64,000 bases of DNA, from contig JACPBO010000005.1 in the NCBI GenBank assembly GCA_016180285.1, positions 48,189-112,188 on the forward strand, written 5' to 3'. Made by a program: the position numbers and the translations under genes. Below the pieces are notes generated by a model. That model had not been told where the DNA came from, did no database searches, and saw nothing but the letters and a program-made list of their open reading frames with translations. Source of the DNA: Candidatus Woesearchaeota archaeon (lineage in GTDB: Archaea; Nanobdellota; Nanobdellia; Woesearchaeales; JACPBO01). Each line of letters opens with the position of its first letter. Position 1 is the stretch's first letter. Positions 5,942-22,908 of the stretch are shown piece after piece.

Positions 5942-8900
5942 ATGTTCTCAATAATGAAGCTAACCTATGCTCATTGCAGCTTATTGGCGATTTTATTAGT
6001 TGCTGTTATCTTTACGAGCAGTTGCACTAAAACTCAAAGAGAGGCGCCATTTCAAATTCCGCAGAAGCCGTTTCAGCCTTTTCAAGAACAAGCTCGACAG
6101 AATCAGATGCCAGGCAATCCTTTAATTGACCACAATACATATATAACTTTTTCCAGTGACGGGAAAACCTGGGAGCAAGGCTCGTTAATCAGAAAATCTG
6201 CATCAGTCCCTGATTTGATTCAGCTTACAAGAGACGCAGGCAAATTCAAAAAAGACGACTTACTGGTTTATTTTGTTGATGCCTTGACAATGGCTGGCCC
6301 GTCAACTGAGCAAGTGGGAATTATTTCTTCCTCTGATTTAGGAAAAACTTGGGCAGAACAAGGCACCATTAAACTTAGCGGCAAAAAAAATAAGGGAGGT
6401 GTTGTTGACCCATCTATAGTTCAGCTAGAGGATGGCTCTTTGAGGCTTTACTTTTTTGGACCAGATATTACAAGCGGCGATCCCGCCAAACAGGAGGGCA
6501 AACATAAAGTTTATTCTGCCAAATCCTCTGATGGAATGAATTTTGTTGCGGAAGAGGGCACCAGATTTGAGGACAACAGCCTGACTGATCCTGAGGTGAT
6601 TTATTTCAACGGCAAATGGCTCATGTACTATTCTGTTGGAGCCTCATCTGAATTAGCAACTTCAAATGATGGATTGAACTTTATAGCTGTTGACATAGAA
6701 GGAGGGAATGTTGGAGGAGTTCCCGGGGCATTGGCACTCGACAATGGAGTCAGGCTTTTTGCCTGCGGAAAGGGAATAGCTACTGCAACATCTACAGACG
6801 GCGTGAATTTTAAGTTGGAACAAATCGATATCCTAAATACAGATGGGATAGTTTGTGACCCTGCTGCTGTGAAACTAGCAGATGGCAAATATGCTATGAT
6901 TTATAAAGCAATTGAAGGAGAGCAAAAGCCGCAATCAGACGGCCAATCCCAACAGGCACAATCGCAATTTTGTCCAGATGGCATTTGTGATGATTTTGAG
7001 ATAAGAGAAGGAGTATGTTCTAAAGACTGCGCTGGTGTTGAGGGATGGCAGGCAAAAAAACAAGTGCAAGAAGTACAGCCTGAGCAGCGAACACAAACAA
7101 TACAAACTCAGGTGTCAGAGCCTATCTCTGTAAAAGCTATTAATTCCACATACAAAACAGTTTCATCAAAACCAACTGGATGGTTTAAAACAGGCCAGGA
7201 TGCAGACATCATGCTCGCAGGAATAGATTTTAATAATGCAGGCGGCTCTCTTTTGTTCAACCACCCCGGAAATGTTGCAAGCGATGGAACGCATCTTCTT
7301 TTAGCTGATAGAAATAACAACCGGATTCTAATATGGAACAAACTTCCAGCCAGCAACATAGCTCCTGATTTGGTGCTTGGCCAAAAAGATTTCTATTCCA
7401 ACAACCCCGGTAAGGGGCTTGATCAGCTAAATTGGCCTGTCAGCGTTTCAGCTGCAAACGGCAAAATAGTGGTGGCCGATACTTACAATGACCGCATTTT
7501 AATCTGGAACTCTTTCCCAACAAAAAATGGACAATCTGCTGATATGGAAATAAAAGATATAGGTATAGGCGGGCCTGCTGATTCAAAAGATATGGAAACT
7601 GCTAAACGCCGTATTGGCTGGCCTTGGGCAGTCTGGACTGACGGAAAGAAACTAATTGTAGCCAGCACCGGATCAGCTTCTGTTTTGATATGGAACTCTT
7701 TCCCCATTCAAAATAATCAGGCTGCTGATATTGTTCTTTTTGCCGGAGGAAAGTTTGGCACTCCACGCTCAATTGGCAGCGATGGCAAGCATCTTCTAAT
7801 TGGCGATCACAATGCCAAGCCGAACAATGGCGGCCAAGGAAACTTTCTTTGGAATAGCTTTCCTACCAAAGATGATGAGCCTTATGACTTTTTTGTTTTC
7901 ACACCATTTAGAATGGGTGAAAAAATACCGTTTCAAGAAGGCCCTGGGCAGCTAGTGCAGGGCGATATAATGTGGGGCGGGGCATTTACGCCAGATGGCA
8001 AATTTATTGTGGTAACCAACAAGCTTTTTATTTGGGACTCTTTCCCTGAAAATGAAAATGACGCAGCTGATTTAGTTGTAGGCACGAGCAGCGCTCCAGG
8101 AGAAAAAAAAGAGGGCTATGCTTTCATTGGGGGAGACGGCTCAGGAGCAGCTTTTGCAGATGGCAAACTATATATAGGGCTTTATAATGGCAATAAAATC
8201 GTTGCTTACAATGAGCTGCCAACTAAGGCAGACCAAAAGCCTGATTTTGCTATCGGCTCGCCAGACATTGATACCAACACACTGGGAACAAATTACTTTG
8301 CCAATAACCCAAACCCCCTCACTGATGGAAAGAGCTTGTTTGTCATTTCGAATTTTGATCATATAATGCATGTATGGAAAAATCTGCCTGACCAAAGCGG
8401 AGCAAAGCCTGATTTTGTTTATGAGTTTTTTCCTCCGCCGCAGCACGCTTCTATTGTACGCAATTCGTTGGTTATAGACACAGGCAATAGAATGTTTGTA
8501 TGGAAAAAATTGCCGCTGAATGGGGAGACGCCAGATGTTACATTTGATGGTAAAATCAGCAACATAGATATTGCAAAAATAAATGGCGTAGCTGGTGACG
8601 AAAAATACTTTTATATCTCCACCATGGAAAACAAAACCTATGTTTGGGAAGATGTGCCAGCCCAAAACACAACCCCTAAAATTATAATAAACACAGCACT
8701 TGGGGGAGCTGGAGGCAAAGGTGGCGGAAGTGTTTACAGCGACGGCACTTACATTACAACTATCTCAACTTTTGAGCACATGGTAAAAATTTATCGTGTT
8801 GCAGACTTAATTTCAAACCCAAAAAATCCGCCTCAACCAATGACAGTTGGCAGGCCAGGCGGGATGTTTAATCTGCCTGAAAGTGCTTTAGTCCGCAACA

Positions 8901-10794: not shown

Positions 10795-11406
10795 TTACTG
10801 AATCTTAGCTATTCCTTCCATTATCTTCTGCCTGAAAATTTCATATCTCCAGTTGCTCAGCTTTTCTCCGTTAATGAAAAATGTAGGAGTTGCATCAACA
10901 CCCATATCTTCAGCTTTCCTCATGTCCCTTGCAACATAAGGCGCTTTTGCCCCTGAATCAAGGCAGTTGCTGAAGTTTTTCATGTCTAATTTTAGTTCTT
11001 TTGCATAGTTTTTCAGATTTCTTGGCGTCGGATCATCCAAGTTTGCATGCACTTTGTCAACAAATTCCCAAAATTTTCCCTGGTCATTCGCGCATTCTGA
11101 TGCTTCTGCTGCTTTAAACGCATATTGGTGCATTGGCAGCGGAAAATGCGCGTATTCCAGCTTTACATCATTTTTGAATTCATCCATTATTTTGTTGATA
11201 GTTGGATGGGCTGCCTTGCATGCAGGGCATTGGAGATCAGAAAACTCTGTTATTGTTATGCGAGCGCTTTCATTGCCTAAAACAGGCCTTGGCGTGTAAA
11301 TTTCGGGGTAATAAGGCTTATTAACATTTTTTAAATAAAAAAACAAAACTACCAGAATGATAAGAATAAAAAAACTATAACTCAGATATTTTTTCTTTAG
11401 CTTCAT
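10795..11406 (-). CDS. DsbA-family thiol:disulfide oxidoreductase, membrane-anchored
   Basis: N-terminal transmembrane segment and the motif [14 protein letters not shown] (CPAC) on a Trx fold with an inserted helical domain. Confidence 0.7.
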
Positions 11407-13832
11407 TTTATCTTTGCCTCATAAAGCCTCATCAAAAGTGAATTCCCGACAACGCTGACGCTGCTGAATGCCATTGCCGCAGCTGCTATGATCGGATTCA
11501 ATAAAAAGCCAGTAAATGGGTATAAGATTCCTGCTGCAATCGGAATCCCGGCTGTATTGTAAAAAAATGCCCAGAACAGGTTCTGCCTTATCTTCCTTAT
11601 TGTATAAGCGCTCAGGTCAATTGCGGTAACAACATCTCTCAGATCATTTTTGATCAAAACAATATTCCCTGTTTCAAGTGCAACATCTGTTCCGGCTCCG
11701 ATTGCAATTCCTATATCTGCCTGCGCAAGAGCAGGAGCATCATTTATGCCATCGCCGACAAATGCAACAATTTCGCCTTTATCCTGCAGCTTCCTGACTT
11801 CCTTTTCCTTGTCTTCAGGCAGCACTTCTGCAAGCACTTTGTCAATTCCGACCTGCCCTGCGATTGCGCCTGCTGTTCTTTTATTGTCGCCAGTTATCAT
11901 AATGACTTCCTTCTTCATCTTATGAAGCTGCTCAACTGCTTCTTTAGAATATTCTTTTAATGTATCCGCAACTGCGACCATGCCAATTACCCTGTTCCTC
12001 AGCGCAACGAGCATCACAGTATTGCCAAGATTCTCAAGCTCGGCAATTTTCGGCTCTATAATCCTTAACGGGAAATTCTCCATCATTTTTCTGTTGCCGA
12101 TTATGATTTCTTCATTTTTGTACTTTGCTTTAACGCCTTTTCCAGGAACTGCAATAAAAGATGAGGCACCGGTAAGTTTTATTTTTAATTCATCGCATTT
12201 TCTTATGATTGCTTCTGCAAGAGGATGCTCTGAGTTTTTCTCTGCAATCCCTGCAAATCTTATGATCTCCCTGTCTGTAATATTTGAAACAGAAACAATC
12301 TTTGTAACTTCTGGCTTTCCTTTTGTCAGGGTTCCTGTTTTGTCAAAGACAATTGCTGTCAGTTTATGCGCTGTCTCCAGTGCTTCTCCTGATTTTATCA
12401 GTATGCCGTTTTCTGCACCTTTCCCGGAGCCAACCATTATGGCAGTTGGCGTTGCCAGTCCAAGCGCGCATGGGCAGGCTATTATCAAAACTGCAATGAA
12501 AATGCTCAATGAAAACACAAAACTTTGGCCAAACAGCATCCAAAGGGCAAATGACAGGACTGCAATCCCGATAACTGTTGGAACGAAATAGCTGCTTACT
12601 TTATCAGCCAGCCTTTGTATCGGCGCTTTGCTGCCCTGCGCTTCCTCAACAAGCTTTATTATCTGCGACAACACAGTGTCTTTTCCTACTTTGGTTGCCT
12701 TGAATTTCAGAGCGCCGTTCTTGTTGATTGTAGCTCCGATCACATTGTCGCCGATTTTCTTTTCAACAGGAATGCTTTCGCCCGAGATCATTGACTCGTC
12801 AACTGCTGAATGCCCTTCAATTACAATGCCGTCAACCGGGATTTTCTCACCTGGCTTTATCAGCACGATATCCCCGGTGACAACATCATCAATGCTTACT
12901 TCAAGTTCTTTCCCGGACCTTATGACTCTTGCTGTTTTTGCCTGCAGGCCCATCAGCTTCTTTATCGCCTCTGATGTCTTGCCTTTCATTACTGCTTCCA
13001 GCAGTTTGCCCAGCAAAATGAATGTGATGATGATGGCTGCTGTATCATAATAAACTCCGCTTTTGAAAACATCAGGAATAAAAGTTACAAGAGCGCTGTA
13101 AATATAGGCTGCGCTTGTGCCCACTGCAATTAAAGTGTCCATATTTGCGGATTTATTTTTTAATGCTATCCACATTCCTGCATAAAACCTTCTTGCTAGA
13201 ATCAATTGCACAGGCGTTGTCAACGCGAACAGGACATAATTTGTGTAAGGCACAATTATCCTGAACCATTCTGGAAATGACAGCACAAAAATAGGAATGC
13301 TCAGCAAAAACCCGAAAAAAACCTCGATTTGCAGCCTTCTTATTTCTCTTTGCCTTGCCTCCTTCTCCTTGTCAGCTGATGCTGTTTCTTCGATCGGCTC
13401 GTAGCCTGCATTCTTTATTGCTTTCTTGATCTCACCAATATTTGCAAGAGCTGTATTAAATCTGACTATCGCTTTCTGATTAACAAGCAAGTCTTTTGAA
13501 ACAACGCCTTTGATTGTGCTTAACGCATCGCTTACTGCGCCGACACAATGCGGGTTGTCCATGCCGATGATTTTTAATTTTATCTCGGAAATGCCTTTCT
13601 CATTTGTTGCGCTTTCTTTTTTCTCTTCTTTTATTATCCCATAGCCTGTTTTTTCTATAGTTTTTTCTATCTCATCCTGATTTATTTTATTTTTATCAAA
13701 TTCAACAGCTGCCTTTTCAGATGCAAAATTCACGCCGGCATTGATTATGCCCTTTGCTTTTTTCAGCGATTTCTCTATTGTGTTTGCGCAGCTTGCGCAG
13801 TGCATGCCCGTTATTTTTATTGTTGTTTTCAT
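11403..13832 (-). CDS. copA: Copper-translocating P1B-type ATPase
   Basis: Two N-terminal heavy-metal-associated domains ([13 protein letters not shown] and [11 protein letters not shown]), transmembrane CPC ([13 protein letters not shown]), DKTGTLT phosphorylation site and GDGINDAP hinge. Confidence 0.9.
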
Positions 13833-14314
13833 TTTTTAGCCTTTATTTTGCAGCTGTTTAAATTGGATGATGTGCTTATTAAGATTAAGATCAATAACAG
13901 GGCAATAAATGCATTAACAAAAATATTAAATCCGGATATCAGCATGCCAATGCCGATTGTCGCGCTTGAAAAAGACAAAAGCAGAGGGGCGCATGTAGGG
14001 CAGACTGAAGTGAACAAGGCAGGAATTATTGCGAAATAACCATATGTTTTCTTACGCAAAGATAAATTCAACCTGAGACTGTAAATGTTCAGTGAAAATA
14101 TCAACCCGGAAAGGAGTGAGATTACAATTAAAAAAAACAAATTTAATGGCGTCCACAAATCAATTCTTACATAAAAGTTTGACAGCAAAATAAAGTTCCA
14201 TGCAAAAATGTAGATTGATGAAAAGACCAATGTAAAAACTGCAAAAAGCATCAAATAGGCCCAGTTGCCTAATACGCAGCTTATTCCATTCAGGCTTTGT
14301 TTTATTCTATTCAT
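13829..14314 (-). CDS. Polytopic membrane protein with CPTC motif, unknown function
   Basis: Four or five transmembrane segments and [10 protein letters not shown]. Overlaps the copA start by 4 nt. Confidence 0.35.
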
Positions 14315-14421
14315 TGAGGATAATGATTTTTTACTTCATTATTCAAGTTTATTAATATTTATTTTTTATTTATTTTTCTAAAAGCTGACCTTTACAGCCA
14401 TCTTCATGGCCATTTTTACAC

Positions 14422-14619
14422 TTATTTCTTTATTTCCTTACGATGGCCAGCATCATCATATTCATAAAGCTTGCCTTCTTCTTCACCATTGCATAATTTA
14501 TGCGAACCATCGCAGAAAGGCTGGTTTTTCGACAAGCCGCACATGCAGATCCATGCAGACTCCTTCTGCGGTTTAATTTCAAGCGGTACATTCGCCGCCT
14601 TTATTACTTTTCTACTCAT
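14422..14619 (-). CDS. CDGSH iron-sulfur domain protein (mitoNEET-like)
   Basis: CMCGLSKNQPFCDGSH matches the CDGSH signature C-x-C-x(n)-C-D-G-S-H. Confidence 0.7.
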   Translation of the reverse strand: MSRKVIKAANVPLEIKPQKESAWICMCGLSKNQPFCDGSHKLCNGEEEGKLYEYDDAGHRKEIKK

Positions 14620-14659
14620 TGTCTCACCTCTCTTTTATTTTTAAAATAAAATAACGCCT

Positions 14660-14935
14660 TTATTTGATTTTTCCATTGAAATAATTGTACAGCCAGGCAA
14701 ACAATGCCCCTGCTATTGCGCCTATAACCATGACCTCGACTAGCCCAAGTACCACGCTTCCAATTGAAACATTTGCTTTCGCTATCAATGTAAGATCAAT
14801 GCCGTGGAATATGGCATTAAAAAATTTTAATGACCCTGCGGGCCACAATGCAATAATCGCAGCGCAGGCCAGTGAAAGTATTCCGCCTACGATGGCCAAT
14901 GCCAATGCTGTTGTTTTTACACTTAATTTTTCCAT
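14660..14935 (-). CDS. Small membrane protein
   Basis: A 91-aa protein with three hydrophobic helices. Confidence 0.3.
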   Translation of the reverse strand: MEKLSVKTTALALAIVGGILSLACAAIIALWPAGSLKFFNAIFHGIDLTLIAKANVSIGSVVLGLVEVMVIGAIAGALFAWLYNYFNGKIK

Positions 14936-14986
14936 TTTTTAGCGCCTCTTATTTCATATTTTTGTTTGCCATTCGCATTTTACACT

Positions 14987-15217
14987 TTAATGGCATTTGC
15001 CTTTATGCATATCTTTCATAATGAAGAAATGCATCAGCGGGCACAACAACAAAATAAGCCAATATAGGTAATTTTTGCCAATCCCAAAAAAATATGCAGC
15101 TGCGATTAATAAAATTAAGACCGCCAAGCAGCATACCAGCATAGTTATGCCTTTTGTATGCTTTACGCCTTTGCAGCCTTCTTCGGCTGTTCTTTTTTTG
15201 CCGGCAATTTTCTTCAT
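14987..15217 (-). CDS. Small two-transmembrane Cys/His membrane protein (DUF2933-like)
   Basis: LLLCPLMHFFIMKDMHKGKCH resembles the small metal-resistance-locus membrane proteins. Confidence 0.35.
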   Translation of the reverse strand: MKKIAGKKRTAEEGCKGVKHTKGITMLVCCLAVLILLIAAAYFFGIGKNYLYWLILLLCPLMHFFIMKDMHKGKCH

Positions 15218-15268
15218 TTAACAGCACCCTTTCTTTCCTTTTCCCATTTTCTTCACCTCCAGTTGATT

Positions 15269-15427
15269 TTACCTTTGCACTGCGTGCTTTGTGATCTCGA
15301 TATTGCAGCTGTGATGCTCTTTGCACCATTTCTGGCATTTTTCAGCCCATTTCTTGTCTTTGTAGGCAAAATTGCATTCTTCACAGATGAAAAGCTCTTT
15401 GTCGCTTTTAATTTCTTGCTTTACCAT
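15269..15427 (-). CDS. Small (52 aa) TRASH-like / zinc-ribbon metal-binding protein; below the ORF-track size cutoff
   Basis: MVKQEIKSDKELFICEECNFAYKDKKWAEKCQKWCKEHHSCNIEITKHAVQR has the C-x2-C...C-x3-C pattern of the TRASH-like domains found in archaeal metal-sensing regulators and metallochaperones. It overlaps the phosphatase gene start by about 20 nt. Confidence 0.4.
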   Translation of the reverse strand: MVKQEIKSDKELFICEECNFAYKDKKWAEKCQKWCKEHHSCNIEITKHAVQR

Positions 15428-15887
15428 TTTGCACCATTTCCTCGAAGTTTATCAGTGATTGGATTTGGGACCTGTTTGGATGTATGATTGGCCTTTTCCT
15501 CTTGATTAGCTTTATCGCCTCGATTGCAGTTTTGCCTTCTAAAATGAAATATGCTGCTACAAGTGTTGGAGCCCTTGCGTGACCATGCTCACAATGAACA
15601 TATACCTTGACTTCATTATCGACCAGCTTCTTAATAAAATTTGCCCCAATCAAAAGCTGTTTAAATGCCGGCGCTTTGTGGTCTTTTGTAGGCAGCCACA
15701 AATAATAGCCTACGCCAAATGGCTGGTCTAGCCTCATTTCTTCCAAGCTTATGTCAGCTCTAACGCCCTTTTTTATCAAGGATTTCTTAAAATGAGAGCT
15801 GCAGCACTGGTTTGTGCCAATGTAAATAAGCTTTGTGATTTCGGAATATTCAAAAATCGGTTTTTCTGGATGGATATTTTCAGGCAT
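15408..15887 (-). CDS. Dual-specificity / protein-tyrosine phosphatase
   Basis: VHCEHGHARAP fits the HC-x5-R P-loop. Confidence 0.7.
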   Translation of the reverse strand: MPENIHPEKPIFEYSEITKLIYIGTNQCCSSHFKKSLIKKGVRADISLEEMRLDQPFGVGYYLWLPTKDHKAPAFKQLLIGANFIKKLVDNEVKVYVHCEHGHARAPTLVAAYFILEGKTAIEAIKLIKRKRPIIHPNRSQIQSLINFEEMVQNGKARN

Positions 15888-15916
15888 TTTTATTTTCCTC
15901 GTTCATTTTATTTGCA

Positions 15917-16219
15917 TCATCTTTCACCCGCAACTATTTTCTCGCAAAACTCGTGCATGTGCTTGTCTATAAGGTTCATCAGGGGCTTTATTGTTTTTTT
16001 GTTTAGCGCGTATATCCTGTGCTTGCCTTTTTTTGCCATAAAAACAAATCCGCACTTTTCAAGCCTTTCAAGATTGTGTGAAACAGTTGTTTGGTTGAAA
16101 TCAAGCAGCTTGCAGATCTCGGAAACGCATTTAGGCGCTTTTCTCAATGTGTTTATTATCTCTAGCCTTCTTTCATTGTCCAGCGTCCCGAAGAATGTTT
16201 TATATGCCTTTTTAATCAT
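15917..16219 (-). CDS. ArsR/SmtB-family metalloregulator
   Basis: A 100-aa HTH protein (EICKLLDFNQTTVSHNLERLEKCGFV) with cysteines positioned as in metal-sensing ArsR proteins. Confidence 0.75.
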   Translation of the reverse strand: MIKKAYKTFFGTLDNERRLEIINTLRKAPKCVSEICKLLDFNQTTVSHNLERLEKCGFVFMAKKGKHRIYALNKKTIKPLMNLIDKHMHEFCEKIVAGER

Positions 16220-16261
16220 ATGTTGAGATAAGCATATGTTATTTATAAATGTTTCTGTTTT

Positions 16262-16546
16262 TTATGCCTTTACAAACAGCCCGCACCAGCACATTGGCTG
16301 CATTCCTGGCCTGGGCCTAAGCCATGTTTCATGAATGAAGAAGTTACAAGGGCAGATAAGCTCCATGTCTTTTTCAAATGTTCCATCTCTCAATCTGCAC
16401 GGGCACAGCTTCAGGCCGTGCTTTTGCTCATTTGACAATACGCCGTCTGCAACAATCTCAACATGCTTTCTGTCAGGGTTCAGCTTAAACGATCCGTTCT
16501 TTTTACTGAAAACATCCCAGACCCCGATCAATTCTTGCTTGTCCAT
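16262..16546 (-). CDS. Ferredoxin:thioredoxin reductase catalytic-subunit-like (FTR-like) protein
   Basis: LCPCRLRDGT...LICPCNFF...CWCG follows the CPC-x15-CPC-...-CxC arrangement of FTR beta-type Fe-S disulfide reductases. Confidence 0.6.
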   Translation of the reverse strand: MDKQELIGVWDVFSKKNGSFKLNPDRKHVEIVADGVLSNEQKHGLKLCPCRLRDGTFEKDMELICPCNFFIHETWLRPRPGMQPMCWCGLFVKA

Positions 16547-16556
16547 CTTGCGCTTG

Positions 16557-16703
16557 CTAAAGCTTCGTTAATTTTTTTGCTTCAGTTGCCTCTATTTTAA
16601 CATACACATTGACATTCTTGCAGGTAGGGCATATTTCCGGGCCAGCCATTCCATAATGTATGTCGTTGCACACAGTGCACCTGAAAAACTGCTTGTCTGA
16701 CAT
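16557..16703 (-). CDS. Small (48 aa) rubredoxin-like zinc-ribbon protein; below the ORF-track size cutoff
   Basis: MSDKQFFRCTVCNDIHYGMAGPEICPTCKNVNVYVKIE contains C-x2-C-x15-C-x2-C. It starts 3 nt after the stop of the upstream membrane-protein gene. Confidence 0.4.
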   Translation of the reverse strand: MSDKQFFRCTVCNDIHYGMAGPEICPTCKNVNVYVKIEATEAKKLTKL

Positions 16704-16706
16704 TTT

Positions 16707-16967
16707 TCACCTCATGAATGGGTTGCCGAATGCAGCGAATGCAATTACAGCATGAAGCATTACAGATGCTGCTAAAAGCCACCAGTAATAGCAGTGATAT
16801 TTGTAGATTTTCATGTAAATCTTTGAATTGCTCAATGCTGCTGATTTTATGCCAATAATGCACCTGCATGAAAATAGAATCAAAAATAAAAAAACTATGT
16901 TTGCCCATCCCAATACATAAACGAACTTTATTCCGAGCGAAGGGTCTATTGCCATTTTACTCGACAA
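16707..16967 (-). CDS. Small membrane protein
   Basis: An 86-aa protein with two or three transmembrane segments. Confidence 0.3.
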   Translation of the reverse strand: MSSKMAIDPSLGIKFVYVLGWANIVFLFLILFSCRCIIGIKSAALSNSKIYMKIYKYHCYYWWLLAASVMLHAVIAFAAFGNPFMR

Positions 16968-17421
16968 TTATCGTTCCTGTAAATGCTGGGTTAAGATGGT
17001 CGTGGTATTTCCATGAGCCTTTGCTGTTGAATGTGAAGGAAAAGGACTCATCCTGAGCCAAGCTCCTGCATGCATCAAATTTGCTCCCTATGCAGCCCCC
17101 GCTTTCGGGATAAACTGAATGAGTTGGGTGCACAGCTGATGCTGGCCAATGGGCACTGCCGTCTTTATTTGTAAAAACAACAGTTTCACCTGCGCTGATA
17201 GCCAATGTCTTTGGGCTAAACCCGGATGATGTAATCTCGACAACATTCATTGCTGCTGATGTTTGCTGCTGCCCGGCTGTCTGCCCGCTGACATCAGTTA
17301 CCTGCTGTCCGGTTTGCTGATTTCCTGCTGTTCCGCTAGTTGTTGTCTGCGCAGCGCATCCTGCTATTAAAACCAATGCGGCCAAAAACAAAACAAAATA
17401 AATTCTTTTCATTTTATCCAC
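16957..17421 (-). CDS. Cupredoxin-like lipoprotein (the Cys ligand of the blue-copper site is replaced)
   Basis: Lipobox LIAGC and a Gln/Thr-rich linker. The C-terminal beta-sandwich segment WKYHDHLNPAFTGTIIV resembles the plastocyanin/azurin C-terminal strand. Confidence 0.45.
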   Translation of the reverse strand: MDKMKRIYFVLFLAALVLIAGCAAQTTTSGTAGNQQTGQQVTDVSGQTAGQQQTSAAMNVVEITSSGFSPKTLAISAGETVVFTNKDGSAHWPASAVHPTHSVYPESGGCIGSKFDACRSLAQDESFSFTFNSKGSWKYHDHLNPAFTGTIIVE

Positions 17422-17432
17422 CCCCTATCTGA

Positions 17433-17879
17433 TTAAAATTTAAGCTTGTAAACCCATGAAGGAATTTTTGCGCCTTTAACTTCATCATACTGCGGCCAAT
17501 AGGGCTTTATGTCAATTATTGGCGTTCCATCAATGATATCGAGGCCCTTTACTTTAATTTTGTTATTCCTATGATCAACTTCCACCAGCTTCACAGTTGT
17601 TATTGCAATCGGATTCGGCCTTGCAGGGCATCTGCATGCAAAAATCCCTACAATCGGCACATCAGGATTGCCCTGCGGCTGATGCTCAATAACGCTGCTT
17701 TTGACCTTGTCCATCCAATAAACAACAATAATGTGAGAATAATCCTCTACACCCTTTAGCGCGCCTGTGAATTTTTTGTCTATCACTATTTCAGAAACTT
17801 CATCGGCAAAATTTCCGAATCTCAGTTCCTTGATATTGTTTCTTACAATGCCAATTGGTTTCAAGATTATGTCTTTCAT
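17433..17879 (-). CDS. TsaA/YaeB (TrmO) family SAM-dependent tRNA methyltransferase
   Basis: PIGIVRNN...RPNPIAITTVKLVEV...GLDIIDGTPIIDIKPY. Confidence 0.75.
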   Translation of the reverse strand: MKDIILKPIGIVRNNIKELRFGNFADEVSEIVIDKKFTGALKGVEDYSHIIVVYWMDKVKSSVIEHQPQGNPDVPIVGIFACRCPARPNPIAITTVKLVEVDHRNNKIKVKGLDIIDGTPIIDIKPYWPQYDEVKGAKIPSWVYKLKF

Positions 17880-17887
17880 TTTTCTCT

Positions 17888-18298
17888 TTATGAATTTGGT
17901 AAAATTTTATCAAGCTCTCCAGCCACATAAGCTACGATTTCTGAGCAGAGATTTTTTCTTTCAGGGCTATCGAACTTATAATCAGCAGTAAGCAGGTTAC
18001 AACAAGTTACACTGTACTTTTCTTCAAATTTATCATAAATATGCTTGCTTAAGTCATTAGCTTTTTTAGAGTCTTCACTTTTCTCTGATCTGCCATAATG
18101 TAAGCCAATAGCCATTGTAGCCCCAGAAATTGCTCCACAAATGCATCCACTTCCCCCAATTCCTGCTCTAAAGCCTGTTGCAGAACGCAAAACTTCATCT
18201 GTAACTGGGTGTCCTGTTTGTTTCATTGCATGCAATACTGCTTCTGTACAACTATATCCTTCAAGATACAGTTTTTTTGCTGATTCAGCTAAACTCAT
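17888..18298 (-). CDS. C_GCAxxG_C_C family putative redox protein
   Basis: YSCTEAVL...GSGCICGAISGA...CCNL spacing is typical of that family. Confidence 0.7.
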   Translation of the reverse strand: MSLAESAKKLYLEGYSCTEAVLHAMKQTGHPVTDEVLRSATGFRAGIGGSGCICGAISGATMAIGLHYGRSEKSEDSKKANDLSKHIYDKFEEKYSVTCCNLLTADYKFDSPERKNLCSEIVAYVAGELDKILPNS

Positions 18299-18852
18299 TT
18301 TTTACCGCCTTTGTGTTTTGCATTATTCTTCCACAACTTTATGATCCATGAATAAACTAAAACAATCAAACCGATTAATGATATCACATAAAGCGCATTC
18401 AGGAAATTCCAATACCATGCATAACTGCCACTCATCATCCCATATCCCATCATGTTGCCTCCAATATTGCCGCTCATCATGTTAAATGAATTGCCCATCA
18501 TGCCGCCCCCCATCATATTGTTTCCCGCCATCATTGACATCATAGACATCATTCCCTGGCTTGTTTCACCGCAGTAAATTGATTTTGCCATCTGAATATG
18601 CATCTGCTTGACTGCAGCAGAATCTTCGCCGCCCATCATAGTGTGCATCAGCTCATGCGCTTCTCCAGAATGCATCTGCTCCATGTAATAATCACCCATA
18701 GCCTCAAGCTGCGCATCCGTTAGTTTGCTGCAGCTAATGTTGGAATCGATAAGCTGCTTTGTTTCATTGAAGTTTTCTTTCGCTAAAACAAAGCCGGTGT
18801 TTAATGCCAAAACCAAAAATACTGCCAAAAATACTGCAAATGATATTTTCAT
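18295..18852 (-). CDS. Secreted Met/Gly-rich protein with C-terminal transmembrane anchor; candidate Cu(I)-binding Met-motif protein
   Basis: Signal peptide followed by MSMMSMMAGNNMMGGGMMGNSFNMMSGNIGGNMMGYGMMSG and HxxMxxM-type motifs (EAHELMHTMMGG). Confidence 0.45.
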   Translation of the reverse strand: MKISFAVFLAVFLVLALNTGFVLAKENFNETKQLIDSNISCSKLTDAQLEAMGDYYMEQMHSGEAHELMHTMMGGEDSAAVKQMHIQMAKSIYCGETSQGMMSMMSMMAGNNMMGGGMMGNSFNMMSGNIGGNMMGYGMMSGSYAWYWNFLNALYVISLIGLIVLVYSWIIKLWKNNAKHKGGKK

Positions 18853-19367
18853 TTTCCCCCCATGGCCATTAATGCCCTTTTCTTTTTATTTTTTTCTCTT
18901 TTTTGCTTAATTTTAGTCTTTTTTTCTCCCCTGCTTTTGTAAAGCATTATTGCAATGCCTGCGGCATTAGAGAGTATTCCTATTAAAATAAACCAAATCG
19001 TATAGCCTGAAAGGGAAGCCAGCGCTGATACTCCTATGAAAGGCAGTATATTCACAAGATAATGGCTGCAGCACAATATCATGCTTGTTGCGGATAATCC
19101 GCCAGATGCCACTGTTGTTGTGCATCCAATTGCGCTTTTATGCCTCAGATAAGTGAAAAGGCCAATCTGAAAGCCAAAGCCTCCGATCAGCAAAACAAGC
19201 AAAGGAGAATATTTTTTGATCTGCGCAACAGCCATGCTTGGAAAGCCAAGGCTCCAAAGCACTATGAAATTTAACAGTAAAATCAATAAAATCCCAATGA
19301 TTCCATTTCTTACTGCCCTGTATTTAATGTCCATTTTCATTCTCCTTGATTTAATGTTTTTTAGCAA
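18849..19367 (-). CDS. Polytopic membrane protein, unknown
   Basis: Five transmembrane segments and a basic C-terminal tail. Confidence 0.3.
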   Translation of the reverse strand: MLKNIKSRRMKMDIKYRAVRNGIIGILLILLLNFIVLWSLGFPSMAVAQIKKYSPLLVLLIGGFGFQIGLFTYLRHKSAIGCTTTVASGGLSATSMILCCSHYLVNILPFIGVSALASLSGYTIWFILIGILSNAAGIAIMLYKSRGEKKTKIKQKREKNKKKRALMAMGGK

Positions 19368-20082
19368 AGTCTGTTATTGAAGCCAATTGACCCAAGATAT
19401 CTTCATTTTTGTCACCATAGCTTATAAGAATTTTATCTCCTTCGTTAAATACGTAATCTCTAAATTCAGTGTTTTCTTTCCTATTTATGTAAAATTTGAG
19501 GGATTTTTCTGCATTATTGCAATATTTTACTCCAGTATCTACTGTGAAGCAATCTTTTTCAAATTTCATTCCAATGCTTTCAAAGAAAATCCAAAGAGGA
19601 ACCCCTGTTGCATGCATATGCAAGACACTTGAAGCATCTTCTTTATTTAGGTTATCATCCACATGAATAAAACTGCTCTTCATATGATATTTTTCATTTG
19701 CGAAGTTAATTGAATTTCCATTTATAAAAACTTTAAAATCAGCATGGGTGTGCCCTGAACCAAGCACCCCAATCGTTGATTTAGAATCCATATTGCACTG
19801 CAGCTGGCCACTGTCTATGCATGCGCTTACATCCATGCCGCAAGCATCGCAAAGCCCATCATTATTTTTGTCCATTAATTTTCTGGCCAGTTGCTTATCA
19901 AAGGCAGTTAAAGCCATTTGGCTTGCAGAATGCATTTCAGTTAATTGTTTATTGGGATTATTGCCCTGAAAATTTAAAAAAGACACTGTGCTGAAGATCA
20001 AAGCAATAGCAGCTATAACTAAAAGCCCGTATAATAAATAATCCTCTTTGTTTTTTATTTTATTTGCTGTTTTTCTTTTCAT
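19351..20082 (-). CDS. Membrane-anchored extracytoplasmic Cys/His-rich protein, unknown
   Basis: Transmembrane anchor, then CDACGMDVSACIDSGQLQC and GSGHTHADFKVF...LHMHATG. Confidence 0.3.
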   Translation of the reverse strand: MKRKTANKIKNKEDYLLYGLLVIAAIALIFSTVSFLNFQGNNPNKQLTEMHSASQMALTAFDKQLARKLMDKNNDGLCDACGMDVSACIDSGQLQCNMDSKSTIGVLGSGHTHADFKVFINGNSINFANEKYHMKSSFIHVDDNLNKEDASSVLHMHATGVPLWIFFESIGMKFEKDCFTVDTGVKYCNNAEKSLKFYINRKENTEFRDYVFNEGDKILISYGDKNEDILGQLASITDFAKKH

Positions 20083-20663
20083 TTTTTCTCCATAAAAACA
20101 TTGTGCATGTATATTTTTCCACCGCCAGGCTCTGTGTGAATGGATTCTTTAATATAGGCTATTTTAAAAGGGCCTGAAAAATACCTTAAAATAGCCTCCT
20201 TTGAAATGCTCTTGTCAAAATGATTTTTATCGCTGAAGCACTGGATATAAACCCTGCCATTGCCTTTCAATAAATTAATAAGCCTTTTAACATATTTTGG
20301 CTTGTCTTTATCAGGGATATGGTGAAAGCATCCCCTGTCAAAAATAAAGTCAAATTTTTTGTTTGTCTTGAATTTCAATACCTTGCCTACAAGATAATTG
20401 CAAGCCAAGCCTTTTCTTAGGCACCTTTCTTTTGCCATATTTACTGCTGCAGGGGATATGTCAACTCCTGTAACCTTAAACCCCTTTGAAGCCAGATAAA
20501 TTGAGTTTGTACCTACTCCCGAACACATGTCAAGAACTTCTCCTGGCCTGATTTTACCCTGCTCAACAAGCTTCACAAGATTTTTTTCAGGATGTTCAGT
20601 ATGCCAGGGAATTTTTTCCAGCCTGTTCTCCCTGTATATCCTGTCCCACCCGTTTTTTTCCAT
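20079..20663 (-). CDS. Class I SAM-dependent methyltransferase
   Basis: VLDMCSGVGTNSIYLA (motif I) and FDFIFDRGCFHHI (post-I and II). Confidence 0.7.
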   Translation of the reverse strand: MEKNGWDRIYRENRLEKIPWHTEHPEKNLVKLVEQGKIRPGEVLDMCSGVGTNSIYLASKGFKVTGVDISPAAVNMAKERCLRKGLACNYLVGKVLKFKTNKKFDFIFDRGCFHHIPDKDKPKYVKRLINLLKGNGRVYIQCFSDKNHFDKSISKEAILRYFSGPFKIAYIKESIHTEPGGGKIYMHNVFMEKK

Positions 20664-20740
20664 TCTTGCCTTCGTATTGCTTAACTAGCTTGCTAGCAGC
20701 ATCCTTTTTTTCCTTTCCCCATTTTTGCACCTCATCCGCA

Positions 20741-21364
20741 TTATGATTTTTTAGCCACAAATATATTGGCATAACCTTTAAGCGCAGGAATTTTATTGAT
20801 AACTTTAAACTTATAGTATTCCAAATGCCTTTGAAAATCCCTGCTGAAAAAGTCATCAATGGCTTCTTTATCAATTATTCTCTCAATCCATTCCAATATT
20901 AAAAATGCTGTTGTTTGTTTTTTTGGCTCCACATATTCAACAAAAACCGCTGTGCCTCCTTTTTTCAATGTCCTGCAAATCTCTGCTATTGCCTTATTTC
21001 TGTCTTTGAATCTTAATTCATGCAACCCCAATGATTCGAATGCAATATCGAAGTAATTGTCTTCAAAGGGAATATTTTTTGCATCTGCAACAATGTATTT
21101 TGTGTTTTTGGAACTTGTTTTTTTCCTGGCTCTTCTTATCATATTTTCTGACAGATCAACCCCAAAAACATTGCCTTTGGCTTTTTCTGCAATCAGGCTC
21201 GTCAATGTTCCTGTGCCGCAAAAAAGATCCAGTATGTTTTTTGCATGCCCGATATCAACAGCATTTGCTGTGGCTTCCCTTAGCCTTTTCTCGCTTCCTA
21301 AAGGAAGCAAAAAGAGCCTGATTTCAAGGTCATAAAGCGCGCTTATTATTCCATTATAAAACAT
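20741..21364 (-). CDS. Class I SAM-dependent methyltransferase (UbiE/COQ5-like)
   Basis: ILDLFCGTGTLTSLIA, VFGVDLSENM and FDIAFESLGLHE. Confidence 0.7.
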   Translation of the reverse strand: MFYNGIISALYDLEIRLFLLPLGSEKRLREATANAVDIGHAKNILDLFCGTGTLTSLIAEKAKGNVFGVDLSENMIRRARKKTSSKNTKYIVADAKNIPFEDNYFDIAFESLGLHELRFKDRNKAIAEICRTLKKGGTAVFVEYVEPKKQTTAFLILEWIERIIDKEAIDDFFSRDFQRHLEYYKFKVINKIPALKGYANIFVAKKS

Positions 21365-21365
21365 T

Positions 21366-22190
21366 TTAGCTTACAGCTGCTGCTGATGACGATGCGTTTA
21401 TTATTGTGTTGTTTGCAATGTTTTTATAAACGACTTTCAGCACGCTCAAATCCCTGAAAATGTAGCTGCCGTCACCCTCAACTGATCCGACCTGCGGCCA
21501 AACTACTGCAAGCGAAGGATAGAGTCCAGCATCCTTTGACAATATGACTGTAGGCACAAATGTAATGTTGTATTTTCTAATCAGCTCCTTGCCTGTTTCT
21601 GATGAAATATCCGCGTATCTTTCTGCTGAAATGGCCATTCCAAAGTTTTGCGGATTTGAAAGTATTAGCTTATGGATTGTTACATTGTAGCAGGTTTTGC
21701 AGCTGCTGTCTGTCAGATATGTCAGCTCTACAAAGCCCTCTGCTTTTGATTTTGCAACATCAAAATAAGGGGGATTGATCAGCCTCAGGACGTAGCTGCC
21801 GTCTTTTTCCACACTCCCGATATCGCTCCAGACGCCTGTTATCTCTTTATATTGCGATGCTTCTTTTGAGAATACTAATGCCGGGAGCTTTAATATCTTG
21901 TATTTTTCAATTAATTGTTTTCCCTCTGCGCTGCTGGCATCAATTGTCTTTTCGCTTTCAAAGAAAATGCCTAAATTCTTTAGGGCAGGCACCAGGCCTG
22001 TCAAATCGCTGCAGCTATCGCATGAAGATGCTTTGAGGTAAATTGAAGAAATGCCTTTTTTAACAACTATTTGGCTGTTTATTCTGAATGTTATGAAAAT
22101 GTTTGTTAAGAACACTATCATGATAAGGGCAACAAGCAACAACTTGATATTTGTAAAGCCGAATTTTCTTTTTTTATTTTTTTCTTCCAT
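21366..22190 (-). CDS. Membrane-anchored protein with two tandem thioredoxin-like CxxC domains (PDI-like a-a' arrangement)
   Basis: Internal duplication of about 100 aa. Repeat 1 carries SSCDSCSDL...LPALVF...DIGSVEKDGSYVLR. Repeat 2 carries SSCKTCYNV...VPTVIL...QVGSVEGDGSYIFR. Both have the cis-Pro loop. Confidence 0.5.
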   Translation of the reverse strand: MEEKNKKRKFGFTNIKLLLVALIMIVFLTNIFITFRINSQIVVKKGISSIYLKASSCDSCSDLTGLVPALKNLGIFFESEKTIDASSAEGKQLIEKYKILKLPALVFSKEASQYKEITGVWSDIGSVEKDGSYVLRLINPPYFDVAKSKAEGFVELTYLTDSSCKTCYNVTIHKLILSNPQNFGMAISAERYADISSETGKELIRKYNITFVPTVILSKDAGLYPSLAVVWPQVGSVEGDGSYIFRDLSVLKVVYKNIANNTIINASSSAAAVS

Positions 22191-22207
22191 TTTTACCTCT
22201 CCAAATC

Positions 22208-22669
22208 CTAAATCCTGCAGCCTGTTAATTCCGAAAGCCTTTCAAAGCTCTGCACTTTTTCGTATCGTTCATTGTTTATTATCCATGTCGGAGTCACTTT
22301 TATATCTGGCCCTTTCTGGTAATCCCTGTAATCAACATACTTGAATGAGTTCCCGAACATTTTGGCCTGCTGCTTTGTGTACTGGCACCATTCAATTGCG
22401 CCATACATCACTGCTCCCTTTTCTTTTAAGCATTTTGCAAAATCATCATAGGCGCCTGGCTTTGATGCAGAATAGATGCTGTATGCCACAATAGCTATTA
22501 TTATAACAGCGATAACTGACAGGATTGTTATTTTATTTCTTTTTTTAGATGCTGCATTTTCTTTTCTTTCCTTATCCAGCTGCTCTCTCTGCTGCCTTAG
22601 CTGCTCTGCTTCCTCACGAAGCTTCTGCTGCCTTTTTTCATCCATCTCCTTTTTGCTTAATTCTTCCAT
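22208..22669 (-). CDS. Membrane-anchored thioredoxin-like protein (CxxT variant)
   Basis: Charged cytoplasmic N-terminus and one transmembrane segment, then YGAIEWCQYTKQQ, which resembles VKOR-associated Trx domains (YGAxWCxxC) with a single Cys. Confidence 0.45.
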   Translation of the reverse strand: MEELSKKEMDEKRQQKLREEAEQLRQQREQLDKERKENAASKKRNKITILSVIAVIIIAIVAYSIYSASKPGAYDDFAKCLKEKGAVMYGAIEWCQYTKQQAKMFGNSFKYVDYRDYQKGPDIKVTPTWIINNERYEKVQSFERLSELTGCRI

Positions 22670-22695
22670 TTTATTTCCTTGTTAAGGCAAATTAA

Positions 22696-22908
22696 TCAAA
22701 ACAACTCTTTAACTGAATTAATTTTCTCAACTGCATTGTTTGCGCCTGTATTTTCCGGCCCGATGACTCCGCAGCCGCCGCCAACTGGCCCGCTCGGTGG
22801 AGCGCTGCCGCTGCCATAATCGCCGCTTGAGCATCCTGCAACAAAAATTAAGCCAACAATCAATAACAACATTAATGCTGTTTTCATATTAGTTTTTTCC
22901 ATTTTCAC
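22696..22908 (-). CDS. Small lipoprotein with internal PVGGGCG motif
   Basis: Lipobox LIFVAGC followed by a Gly/Ser-rich stretch and VGGGCGV. Confidence 0.4.
   Translation of the reverse strand: MKMEKTNMKTALMLLLIVGLIFVAGCSSGDYGSGSAPPSGPVGGGCGVIGPENTGANNAVEKINSVKELF

Follow-up and report, generated by a model that had tools for sequence, protein, structure and literature searches.

Our analyses of a 64-kb stretch of DNA from a Candidatus Woesearchaeota archaeon (the window) revealed a 52-residue protein with five conserved cysteines, encoded on the minus strand at 15269..15427, that groups through its homologues with the family DUF7128. We propose, in a reading of sequence and gene order that we regard as evenly poised, that this mini-protein acts in the cytoplasm as a module for thiol-loving metals and is encoded in a copA operon headed by arsR. 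Its cysteines would bind a thiol-loving metal ion, Cu(I) in the window and Hg(II) or As(III) elsewhere, and the protein would hold this ion or pass it between small Cys-containing membrane proteins (DUF2933, TM161/MerC-like) and the removal enzymes, CopA in the window and MerA in other genomes. Other organisms fill this role with CopZ/HMA, NmerA or TRASH proteins. Binding of the transported metal by the cysteines, beyond structural zinc alone, is something we infer, as is the direction of any transfer. The idea of a small, Cys-rich metal-handling protein is supported indirectly by domain fusions and by recurrent cop, mer and ars neighbourhoods; five near-invariant cysteines, a confidently predicted fold and the lack of a CopZ-type chaperone in the window also count towards it. 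Counting against a hand-over of metal, a tetrahedral Cys4 site of finger shape usually holds zinc structurally and is no site of labile transfer.

Judged by its conservation, the reading frame is a genuine gene. The encoded protein, MVKQEIKSDKELFICEECNFAYKDKKWAEKCQKWCKEHHSCNIEITKHAVQR, is identical (100% NCBI match) to the GenBank hypothetical protein HYU07_01405 of Candidatus Woesearchaeota archaeon, has 22 close homologues with E-values down to 1e-11, and belongs to a larger set of relatives, which comprises 594 sequences that each represent a 50%-identity cluster, and 1,181 clusters when grouped at 90% identity. The start, M-V-K, is kept across homologues. Of the 173 relatives fetched, 158 reproduce the cysteine spacing, C-x2-C-x12-C-x3-C-x5-C, without deviation, and in 161 the spacer between the two pairs is exactly 12. 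Because of this match, the many homologues and the conserved start and spacing, the frame lies far beyond chance, and we ruled out a spurious ORF. A competing 111-aa frame on the same strand (15003-15338), which overlaps both the mini-protein gene and the DUF2933 gene, was itself regarded as spurious: it is low in complexity and basic, and homology backs the two shorter genes. A first-pass annotation of this DNA had described the gene as absent from the ORF track, which holds only for lists with a 60-aa cut-off, since GenBank annotates it. The same annotation had noted a C-x2-C...C-x3-C arrangement, and the two pairs are indeed there (C15-x2-C18 and C31-x3-C35, 12 residues apart); it left unmentioned the fifth invariant cysteine, C41, which sits within an S-C-N motif. 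In family alignments, Y22, S40, N42 and I45 are near-invariant alongside the five cysteines.

Against the Pfam model PF23447 (DUF7128), the window protein scores 14.9 bits (E 0.025), below the gathering threshold (GA) of 25.7. Because 21 of 23 close homologues nevertheless match (best E 2.6e-6), we class the mini-protein by transitivity as a divergent DUF7128 member. The match spans positions 1-37 of 44, taking in the CxxC and the first helix cysteines, and a precomputed PF23447 match accompanies about half of the relatives listed among the 1,181 clusters. DUF7128 is a large, uncharacterised Pfam family with no assigned function, and literature searches for the family and for the Cys motif returned nothing relevant. 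An AF2 model (pLDDT 93.2) predicts a beta-hairpin followed by a long helix that contains both late cysteines, and in this model the protein resembles a classical C2H2 beta-beta-alpha finger with the histidines replaced by cysteines. C2H2 fingers also came out on top among structural and PDB-profile matches; these matches are not statistically significant, and the profile search yielded only summed partial matches to the first halves of C2H2 fingers in repeats.

The genes around the mini-protein gene are tightly packed on the minus strand in the order arsR, dual-specificity phosphatase (DSP), mini-protein, DUF2933, DUF5676, CDGSH, TM161 and copA. The ArsR/SmtB-family metalloregulator (15917..16219; HTH_5 2.5e-14; NF033788 63.6 bits, cut-off 55) is likely encoded by the first gene of the operon, and an alignment of ArsRs adjoining mini-protein genes shows invariant C56 and H87 and a Cys tail at the C-terminus. 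A candidate arsR promoter and operator, whose function is deduced from sequence, occupies 16217..16249 on the same strand. Within it, a TATA-like TTTATAAATA (16240-16249) stands ~26 nt upstream of the arsR ATG, a distance that suggests a leaderless transcript, and a CATATG-N10-CATATG element (16217-16238) overlaps the arsR start codon. This element is unique in the window, against 0.05 occurrences expected by chance, and may be the operator through which ArsR exerts control. Conservation upstream of arsR at locus L001 is uninformative because the DNA there is 97% identical, and a sigma-70 promoter and terminator scan, a model not applicable to an archaeon, gave nothing usable.

The DSP-fold protein (15408..15887, minus strand; Pfam DSPc 5.1e-17) carries an HCxxGHxR P-loop, D69 and, in the orthologue alignment, an invariant vicinal C28-C29 pair. 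The ArsR and phosphatase genes that the first-pass annotation had placed close to the mini-protein gene lie upstream of it on the same strand. The overlap it had placed at the start of the phosphatase gene involves instead the 3' end of that gene, which runs 20 nt (15408-15427) into the start of the mini-protein gene, a translational-coupling arrangement. DSP orthologues also stand directly upstream of mini-protein genes, with overlaps of 4-29 nt, in L010, L030 and L067.

Downstream follow four small genes, all on the minus strand. The first (14987..15217) encodes a 76-aa two-helix membrane protein that is DUF2933-like (20.6 bits, GA 21), with CC in the first helix, LCPLMH in the second and K-C-H at the C-terminus; its L001 orthologue (phmmer 1.7e-41) reaches 29.7 bits to DUF2933, a family included in bacterial copA-cupredoxin-DUF2933-ICMT loci (PMC8478169). 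Next come a 91-aa two-transmembrane DUF5676 protein (14660..14935; Pfam 3.7e-19), whose family is also found near the mini-protein gene in L001 and L093, and a 65-aa CDGSH iron-sulfur domain protein (14422..14619; Pfam zf-CDGSH 1.5e-11), a neighbour that recurs in L001 and L025. The fourth is a 161-aa membrane protein, TM161 (13829..14314), with an intramembrane C-P-T-C and a weak MerC-like match (E 0.017). Its relatives occur near mini-protein genes in 6-9 loci, directly upstream and overlapping in L027 and L047, and in the window its stop and the copA start share 4 nt. The copA frame (11403..13832, minus strand) encodes an 809-aa CopA-type P1B-ATPase with an HMA domain (GMHCASC) at its N-terminus and a CPC motif, and its L001 orthologue carries HMA, E1-E2_ATPase and Hydrolase domains. 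The distance to the copA start is 1.44 kb from the mini-protein gene and 2.39 kb from the arsR start, both of which lie upstream of copA and share its orientation, as the 1.4 to 2.4 kb given previously had indicated. Within the 64 kb of the window HMA occurs solely inside CopA, no stand-alone HMA/CopZ gene being found there, and the mini-protein gave no match to a CopZ-type, ferredoxin-like HMA domain (GMxCxxC). MerA was looked for in the window and not found. Redox genes are also numerous in the window cluster (FTR-beta-like, rubredoxin-like, C_GCAxxG_C_C, DsbA-like and CDGSH).

Gene neighbourhoods in other genomes were tallied over 74 loci, as raw counts from crude ORF calling with no background control. 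ArsR lies within ~6 kb of the mini-protein gene in 11 of the 74 and abuts it in L012 and L001, in the latter with a 1-nt overlap; P1B-ATPases, mostly of the CPC type, lie within the same distance in roughly 15. Two loci combine the gene with mercuric reductase, in the orders ArsR-mini-MerA (L012) and ArsR-MerA-...-DSP-mini (L010). Both MerAs, at 497 and 485 bits, score above the TIGR02053 cut-off of 454. Each carries CVNVGC and, at the C-terminus, ACCVE, and neither has an NmerA domain. In L093 the order is HxlR followed by MerC-Grx-TM-mini. Against the metal-module reading, many family members sit in surroundings that contain no metal gene: the marine P0019 loci adjoin thyA, DER1 and pdxS/T, and L095 and L096 are further examples.

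Domain fusions place the mini-protein domain in direct connection with metal proteins. It precedes HMBD and a P1B-ATPase in L044 (E1-E2_ATPase 5.5e-50, HMBD 1.8e-11), and it follows HMBD in P0117 and a MerC transporter in P0134 (34.6 bits, GA 27.6). DUF2933 is N-terminal to it in P0075, P0081, P0100 and P0082 (28.6-43 bits, all above GA), and further partners are an ICMT-like enzyme ahead of it (L053) and an ArsC-type LMWPc fragment behind it (P0242). In 15 species of candidate-phyla-radiation (CPR) bacteria the domain stands N-terminal to a TM161-like membrane domain, which hhalign relates to TM161 with 96.2% probability (E 2.4e-9), the CPxC motifs being aligned. These ~545-aa proteins were considered as MerA with a new N-terminus and proved to consist of the mini-protein domain, the TM161-like membrane domain and an uncharacterised Cys-rich C-terminal domain. 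In the window operon, two of these partners, DUF2933 and TM161, have genes of their own. As Rosetta-stone evidence, the fusions locate the mini-protein domain at the cytoplasmic face of the metal machinery.

Is the mini-protein a shortened TRASH domain, homologous to CopM/MerH? The first-pass annotation had called it TRASH-like and saw in the locus a minimal split CopT/CopM. The C-x2-C...C-x3-C pattern, a small size like that of CopM (56-71 aa; PMC3595675) and a cop-like locus with regulator and CopA all agree with such a view. The comparison with Pfam TRASH models that had been suggested as a check nonetheless gave nothing for the window protein at E<=1 across the TRASH clan (CL0175: Arc_trans_TRASH, YHS, zf-FCS, L24e), nor for its 23 homologues, with none of the 23 family members matching at E<=10, a search limited by HMMER filters that drop most matches above ~0.1. 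When the family profile was compared by hhalign with YHS/TRASH domains from neighbouring ATPases, which have spacers of 21-22 residues and a Y-[YH]-F-C motif, the probability was 0.65%. TRASH domains reportedly have a spacer of ~19-22 residues and an aromatic-Cys-Ser/Ala ahead of the third ligand, against 12 residues in the mini-protein. That spacer is also shorter than the zf-FCS pattern, CX2CX14-30FCSX2C (PMC4047054), allows. The helical position predicted for both late cysteines is that of beta-beta-alpha fingers, and the predicted fold is not of an L24e-like or treble-clef type. By profile and model alike, the mini-protein is not a TRASH domain; no relationship to CopT/CopM is detectable in sequence or fold, and the homology is effectively refuted at both levels, with next to no chance of being right. 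What survives of the earlier proposal is a function together with ArsR and CopA, to which fusions and neighbourhoods lend indirect support.

A second possibility is a thiol-redox module, with dithiol/disulfide cycling, a rubredoxin-like Fe(Cys)4 site or a zinc-thiolate switch, which would pass electrons or sense oxidants in thioredoxin/glutaredoxin-type systems, and whose association with metal loci would reflect general thiol stress. The most frequent mini-protein neighbours overall are in fact thiol-redox proteins: in 8 Chloroflexi loci the gene immediately ahead on the same strand, across a gap of 12-56 nt, encodes a TrxR/AhpF-like flavoprotein and is itself preceded by a YruB-type glutaredoxin-like gene and rubrerythrin, and Grx-like genes, Trx-fold genes and HxlR regulators occur at 13, 13 and 6 of the 74 loci. 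A possible AhpC/TSA fusion (L070), the redox genes of the window cluster, and the Cys motifs that the CPR fusions bear on both sides of the membrane, as in DsbD-type relays, point the same way. We still regard this reading as unlikely, since the fusions to HMBD, a P1B-ATPase N-terminus, MerC and DUF2933 typify metal-binding domains and not electron carriers, surroundings with MerA, MerC and ArsC are specific to metal(loid)s, and a helix-borne C-x3-C is unusual for a redox-active disulfide motif. Rather improbable, too, is a zinc finger whose role is structural only, which would bind a partner protein or nucleic acid (the DSP, ArsR or the cytoplasmic face of membrane proteins, for instance) as an adaptor or regulatory subunit and take no part in handling transported metal. 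It would suit the PDB-profile matches, confined to first halves of C2H2 fingers, the overlapping DSP-mini gene pair kept in four lineages, the abutting arsR genes of L001 and L012, and the housekeeping contexts of some members. A fifth invariant cysteine outside the four finger ligands argues against it, as do repeated fusions to transporters and metal-binding domains, and not to DNA-binding or enzymatic regulators; judged from sequence only, the protein also lacks the basic surface and linker features of nucleic-acid-binding fingers.

What would a metal-handling role imply for the family at large? Extending the metal module beyond the window, we speculate, with a confidence somewhat short of even, that DUF7128 is a previously unrecognised, widespread cytoplasmic domain for binding and handing over metal, a Cys5 beta-beta-alpha unit unlike HMA, TRASH/YHS or HMBD. 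DPANN archaea, CPR bacteria, Dehalococcoidia and Methanosarcinales would use it to detoxify copper, mercury and possibly arsenic; it would dock on DUF2933 and TM161/MerC-like proteins, and replace CopZ or NmerA where these are missing. If so, a new structural class passing Cu(I), Hg(II) or As(III) would join the few prokaryotic metal-trafficking modules, and it would become clear how the tiny genomes of DPANN and CPR organisms, and mer operons with only a MerA core, cope without CopZ, MerP or NmerA. It would also give the first functional handles on DUF7128, DUF2933, DUF5676 and the TM161/CPxC membrane family, and better annotation for more than 1,000 'hypothetical' small proteins that ORF-length cut-offs often drop.

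Several known systems share features with the mini-protein. The classical C2H2 finger, C-x2-4-C-x12-H-x3-5-H, coordinates one zinc ion in a hairpin-helix fold. The mini-protein has the same C-x2-C-x12-(ligand)-x3-(ligand) spacing, the predicted hairpin and helix and, two positions ahead of the first cysteine, an aromatic residue; it differs in having cysteine at all four ligand positions, in the additional Cys41, and in a genomic context of metal and redox genes, not of nucleic-acid binding. In its placement it resembles HMA/CopZ/NmerA, HMBD and YHS, occupying like them the N-terminus of a P1B-ATPase (beside HMBD in L044), the C-terminus of MerC, or a stand-alone gene beside an NmerA-less MerA core, whereas its fold and motif are different. 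Archaea offer parallels in gene order. CopM, the TRASH chaperone of the archaeal cop cluster (PMC3595675), and MerH of Sulfolobales are likewise small, stand-alone, Cys-rich proteins whose genes lie between those for a regulator and for an enzyme that removes metal, and the ArsR-mini-MerA order of L012 recalls the arsR-type merR / TRASH merH / merA order of Sulfolobus (PMC3466566). The window resembles the cop cluster in combining a regulator, a small Cys protein and CopA; there the regulator, CopT/CopR, is an Lrp-type HTH fused to TRASH and accompanies a CPC-type CopA (PMC7830388), whereas the ArsR of the window has no fused metal domain, and of copT/copR, copM and copA only a CPC-motif CopA is present. 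With a spacer of 12 and not ~20 residues and an extra fifth cysteine, the mini-protein may, by analogy, work like CopM/MerH while standing outside that family.

Our analyses of the 52-aa protein encoded at 15269-15427 (minus strand), here called mini, show a conserved Cys5 finger, cytoplasmic by inference, that is tied, genetically and physically (by fusions), to small membrane proteins bearing Cys and to the machinery of Cu, Hg and As resistance. The ORF is a genuine gene; its product is identical to GenBank HYU07_01405, a "hypothetical protein" of Candidatus Woesearchaeota archaeon. Searches gave 22 close homologues (54-77% identity), 594 cluster representatives at 50% identity (E<=1e-3) and, with a profile, 1,181 clusters at 90% identity. 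M1 is nearly invariant, and a GGTG Shine-Dalgarno-like element can be read 5-8 nt before the mini ATG, within the phosphatase gene. Residues C15, C18, C31, C35, C41, Y22 and I45 are invariant across both alignments, joined by S40, N42 and A49 in the 23 closest homologues; of 173 relatives fetched, 158 keep the spacing C-x2-C-x12-C-x3-C-x5-C exactly. With one genome scanned per species, 339 loci came up, in DPANN archaea (Woese-, Aenigmat-, Pace-, Micr- and Nanoarchaeota), Methanosarcinales and a Thorarchaeote, and in bacteria of the candidate phyla radiation (CPR) and Dehalococcoidia/Chloroflexi.

The genes of the mini region are tightly packed, all on the minus strand. The ArsR gene (15917-16219, 100 aa) is followed after 29 nt by that of a dual-specificity-phosphatase-fold protein, DSP (15408-15887, 159 aa), which overlaps mini by 20 nt; then come, after 51 nt, a DUF2933-like two-helix membrane protein (14987-15217, 76 aa), after another 51 nt DUF5676 (14660-14935, 91 aa), after 40 nt a CDGSH protein (14422-14619, 65 aa) and, after 107 nt, the membrane protein TM161 (13829-14314, 161 aa), whose stop codon overlaps by 4 nt the start of copA (11403-13832, 809 aa), the last gene of the series. 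These ORFs bear out the first-pass annotation in its coordinates for mini, its cysteine pattern and its distances to copA; it was also right that mini overlaps the phosphatase gene, but the start of mini meets the 3' end of that gene, not its start. CopA has GMHCASC within its HMA domain, and a CPC motif is also there; no CopZ gene occurs in the 64-kb window. TM161 has an intramembrane CPTC motif, matches no Pfam family and shows a weak MerC-like match (E 0.017). The DUF2933-like protein bears CC in helix 1, LCPLMH in helix 2 and K-C-H at its C-terminus, a layout that may resemble that of MerF and MerE, mercury transporters that also have two helices. A basic, low-complexity ORF of 111 aa (15003-15338, minus strand) overlaps both this gene and mini and would be chosen by a longest-ORF rule; it is almost certainly spurious, and illustrates how ORF tracks can lose short real genes.

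Is mini a TRASH protein, as supposed when the locus was first read as a possible split CopT/CopM-like copper module with ArsR and CopA? The only weak Pfam matches of the window protein are a zinc ribbon and DUF7128 (PF23447), the latter at 14.9 bits against a gathering score of 25.7; no match to the TRASH clan appeared at E<=1. DUF7128 is matched by 21 of 23 family members (best 2.6e-6), and Arc_trans_TRASH, YHS, zf-FCS and L24e by none of the 23; a precomputed PF23447 match exists for about half of the listed relatives. Real YHS/TRASH domains do occur in P-type ATPases adjoining some members, with the pattern D-x2-C-x21-22-Y-[YH]-F-C-x3-C, and when the profile of the mini family was compared with theirs the probability was 0.65%. 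Mini shows no significant TRASH similarity and is not a TRASH protein; we consider homology to TRASH extremely improbable. The AlphaFold2 model from the 23-sequence alignment is very confident (pLDDT 93.2) and places strands at 2-7 and 10-15, the CxxC closing the hairpin, then a short strand, a helix at 25-38 on which C31 and C35 lie and, past C41, a second, short helix at 43-46. This predicted beta-beta-alpha topology, with the x12 spacer, is that of a classical C2H2 zinc finger, from which mini differs in having Cys for His; in a PDB profile search the matches were confined to the first half of C2H2 repeats. A spacing incompatible with metal coordination, named beside the lack of TRASH similarity as what would refute the first reading, was not seen, because the spacing is a classic metal-binding one.

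The mini domain forms the C-terminus of DUF2933 two-helix membrane proteins in P0075, P0081, P0100 and P0082 (28.6-43 bits against a gathering threshold of 21) and of a MerC protein, P0134 (34.6 bits against 27.6). It is fused to the heavy-metal-binding domain HMBD in P0117, and at L044, a Liptonbacteria genome, it occupies the extreme N-terminus of an HMBD-containing CPH-type P1B-ATPase. Other partners are an ICMT-like methyltransferase (L053), an ArsC-type low-molecular-weight phosphatase fragment (CTENAGRSQMAEA; P0242) and possibly an AhpC/TSA protein (L070), which may be an ORF-calling artefact. Fifteen CPR species and one archaeal genome carry an N-terminal mini joined to a membrane protein, ~545 aa overall, whose membrane part is homologous to TM161 (hhalign probability 96.2%, E 2.4e-9, CPxC motifs aligned). 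Two partners of mini fusions found elsewhere, DUF2933 and TM161, are thus encoded separately in the window operon. P1B-ATPase N-termini are cytoplasmic, and together with the positive-inside rule applied to the DUF2933 fusions this suggests a cytoplasmic mini domain. In bacteria, both DUF2933 and ICMT are already established as belonging to copA-cupredoxin-DUF2933-ICMT loci (PMC8478169).

The ~545-aa proteins (L013:6001-7611; similar in L014-L016, L018-L021, L024, L029, L034, L039, L054, L066 and L083) are mainly from CPR bacteria, L083 being archaeal. Each consists of the mini domain, a membrane domain resembling TM161 (ASACPVCGST) and a Cys-rich C-terminal domain (YRPCCNNSTFFQDCNHGSA ... GCGV) that is probably external and has no Pfam match. 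Genes for a membrane-anchored thioredoxin-fold protein and a ~204-aa Cys-rich protein usually lie upstream, and together these proteins resemble a Cys relay across the membrane.

Metal contexts recur around mini. In L001, from a sister Woesearchaeote, ArsR overlaps mini by 1 nt with no phosphatase in between, and the DUF2933, DUF5676, CDGSH, TM161 and CopA genes are all shared with the window. L012 reads ArsR-mini-MerA-TM161-like, and L010/L011 read ArsR-MerA-...-DSP-mini (overlapping)-...-TM161-like-peroxiredoxin. The MerAs of these two arrangements, with scores of 497 and 485 bits, exceed the NCBIfam MerA cut-off of 454 (TIGR02053); each has a CVNVGC active site and ends in an ACCVE pair, and neither carries an NmerA domain. 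These loci (L012:3202-5185, ArsR-mini-MerA core; L010:321-3790) are mercury-resistance operons of uncultured organisms, and L012 holds another 52-aa DUF7128 gene at 7434-7592. At L093, HxlR is divergent from a 48-aa gene followed by MerC, glutaredoxin, a 145-aa gene and mini; L094 reads ICMT...mini-Mrr-TrmO_N-YHS/HMA ATPase. Neighbours were counted at 74 loci from our own ORF calls, as raw counts without background control: within four genes stood pyridine-nucleotide disulfide oxidoreductases at 17 loci, thioredoxin-fold and glutaredoxin-like proteins at 13 each, TM161-like proteins at nine and HxlR at six, and within about 6 kb P1B-ATPases at about 15, ArsR at 11, TM161-like proteins at six and DSP at four. 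Chance would place a P1B-ATPase in a 12-kb window in roughly 1-2% of cases, by a rough estimate for ~1-Mb genomes with one or two such ATPases. Around mini in the marine P0019 loci, in L095 and in L096 there is neither a metal nor a redox context.

Of the 17 oxidoreductases, eight are TrxR/AhpF-like and encoded directly upstream of mini. This arrangement, with gaps of 12-56 nt, is that of Dehalococcoidia/Chloroflexi (L035, L037, L049, L050, L059, L061, L062 and L065, mini mostly at ~6001), often with a BASS/SBF-family transporter on the opposite strand and, for L062 and L065 at least, a glutaredoxin-like gene of YruB type or a rubrerythrin gene farther upstream. Eight loci of Woesearchaeota and Methanosarcinales (L028, L032, L042, L045, L047, L058, L085 and L086) have immediately 3' of mini a 230-aa multi-pass membrane protein with His-rich helices that matches neither Pfam nor NCBIfam, followed in L028, L045 and L047 by a gene of ~654 aa; downstream in L032, L042 and L085 lie a glutaredoxin-like and then a glutamate-dehydrogenase-like gene.

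ArsRs adjoining mini genes align with invariant C56 and H87 and Cys in their C-terminal tails, residues that would be compatible with thiolate-based sensing. A TATA-like TTTATAAATA lies at 16240-16249, ~26 nt upstream of the arsR ATG, and just downstream a CATATG-N10-CATATG element (16217-16238), the only one in the window (0.05 expected by chance), overlaps the start codon; 16217-16249 is a possible leaderless promoter and ArsR operator. DSP keeps D69 and the P-loop HC99-x2-G-H-x-R105 and has an unusual invariant vicinal C28-C29 pair. The overlapping DSP-mini gene pair is conserved in four distant lineages (the window; L010:3151-3624; L030:5549-6004; L067:398-880), and at three of the four DSP loci counted, as in the window, the start of mini is overlapped by the phosphatase gene. 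Mini is thus paired with two differing CX5R enzymes, DSP and the ArsC-type fragment of P0242; arsenate reduction and redox regulation are possible meanings of this coupling.

The cop operon lies in about 12 kb of collinear minus-strand genes (10795-22908), a metal and thiol-stress island whose gene set is syntenic in L001. It also holds genes for DsbA-like (10795-11406), FTR-beta-like (16262-16546) and 48-aa rubredoxin-like (16557-16703) proteins, a cupredoxin lipoprotein (16957-17421), TrmO_N (17433-17879), C_GCAxxG_C_C (17888-18298), a Met-rich secreted protein (18295-18852), a Cys-bearing membrane protein (18849-19367), a 243-aa Cys-rich protein (19351-20082) and TPMT/TehB-like (20079-20663) and UbiE-like (20741-21364) methyltransferases.

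What, then, does mini do? We propose, as the most economical mechanism, a putative ligand-exchange module: mini would exchange thiol-loving metal ions through its thiolates and, in the window operon, would serve CopA. We hold this proposal to be an even call, because Cys4 fingers are usually structural zinc sites and thiol-redox neighbours are at least as frequent at mini loci as metal ones. The redox neighbours speak for a redox relay or sensor, a reading that we think unlikely; against it stand the MerC, HMBD, DUF2933 and P1B-ATPase fusions. Similarly unlikely, in our estimate, is a purely structural adaptor finger, for instance for DSP or ArsR; the recurrent fusions with transporters and metal-binding domains tell against it.

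The family is only a DUF in Pfam, source databases label its members hypothetical, and no paper on DUF7128 turned up in the literature library searched. Under the ligand-exchange proposal, mini would be a functional analogue of CopZ, NmerA, CopM and MerH. In Sulfolobus the order is arsR-type regulator, TRASH protein, merA (PMC3466566); L012 mirrors it with mini in the place of the TRASH protein. Metal-binding modules are already known as a kind of system from cop and mer loci; it is the fold and family of mini in such a role that would be new.
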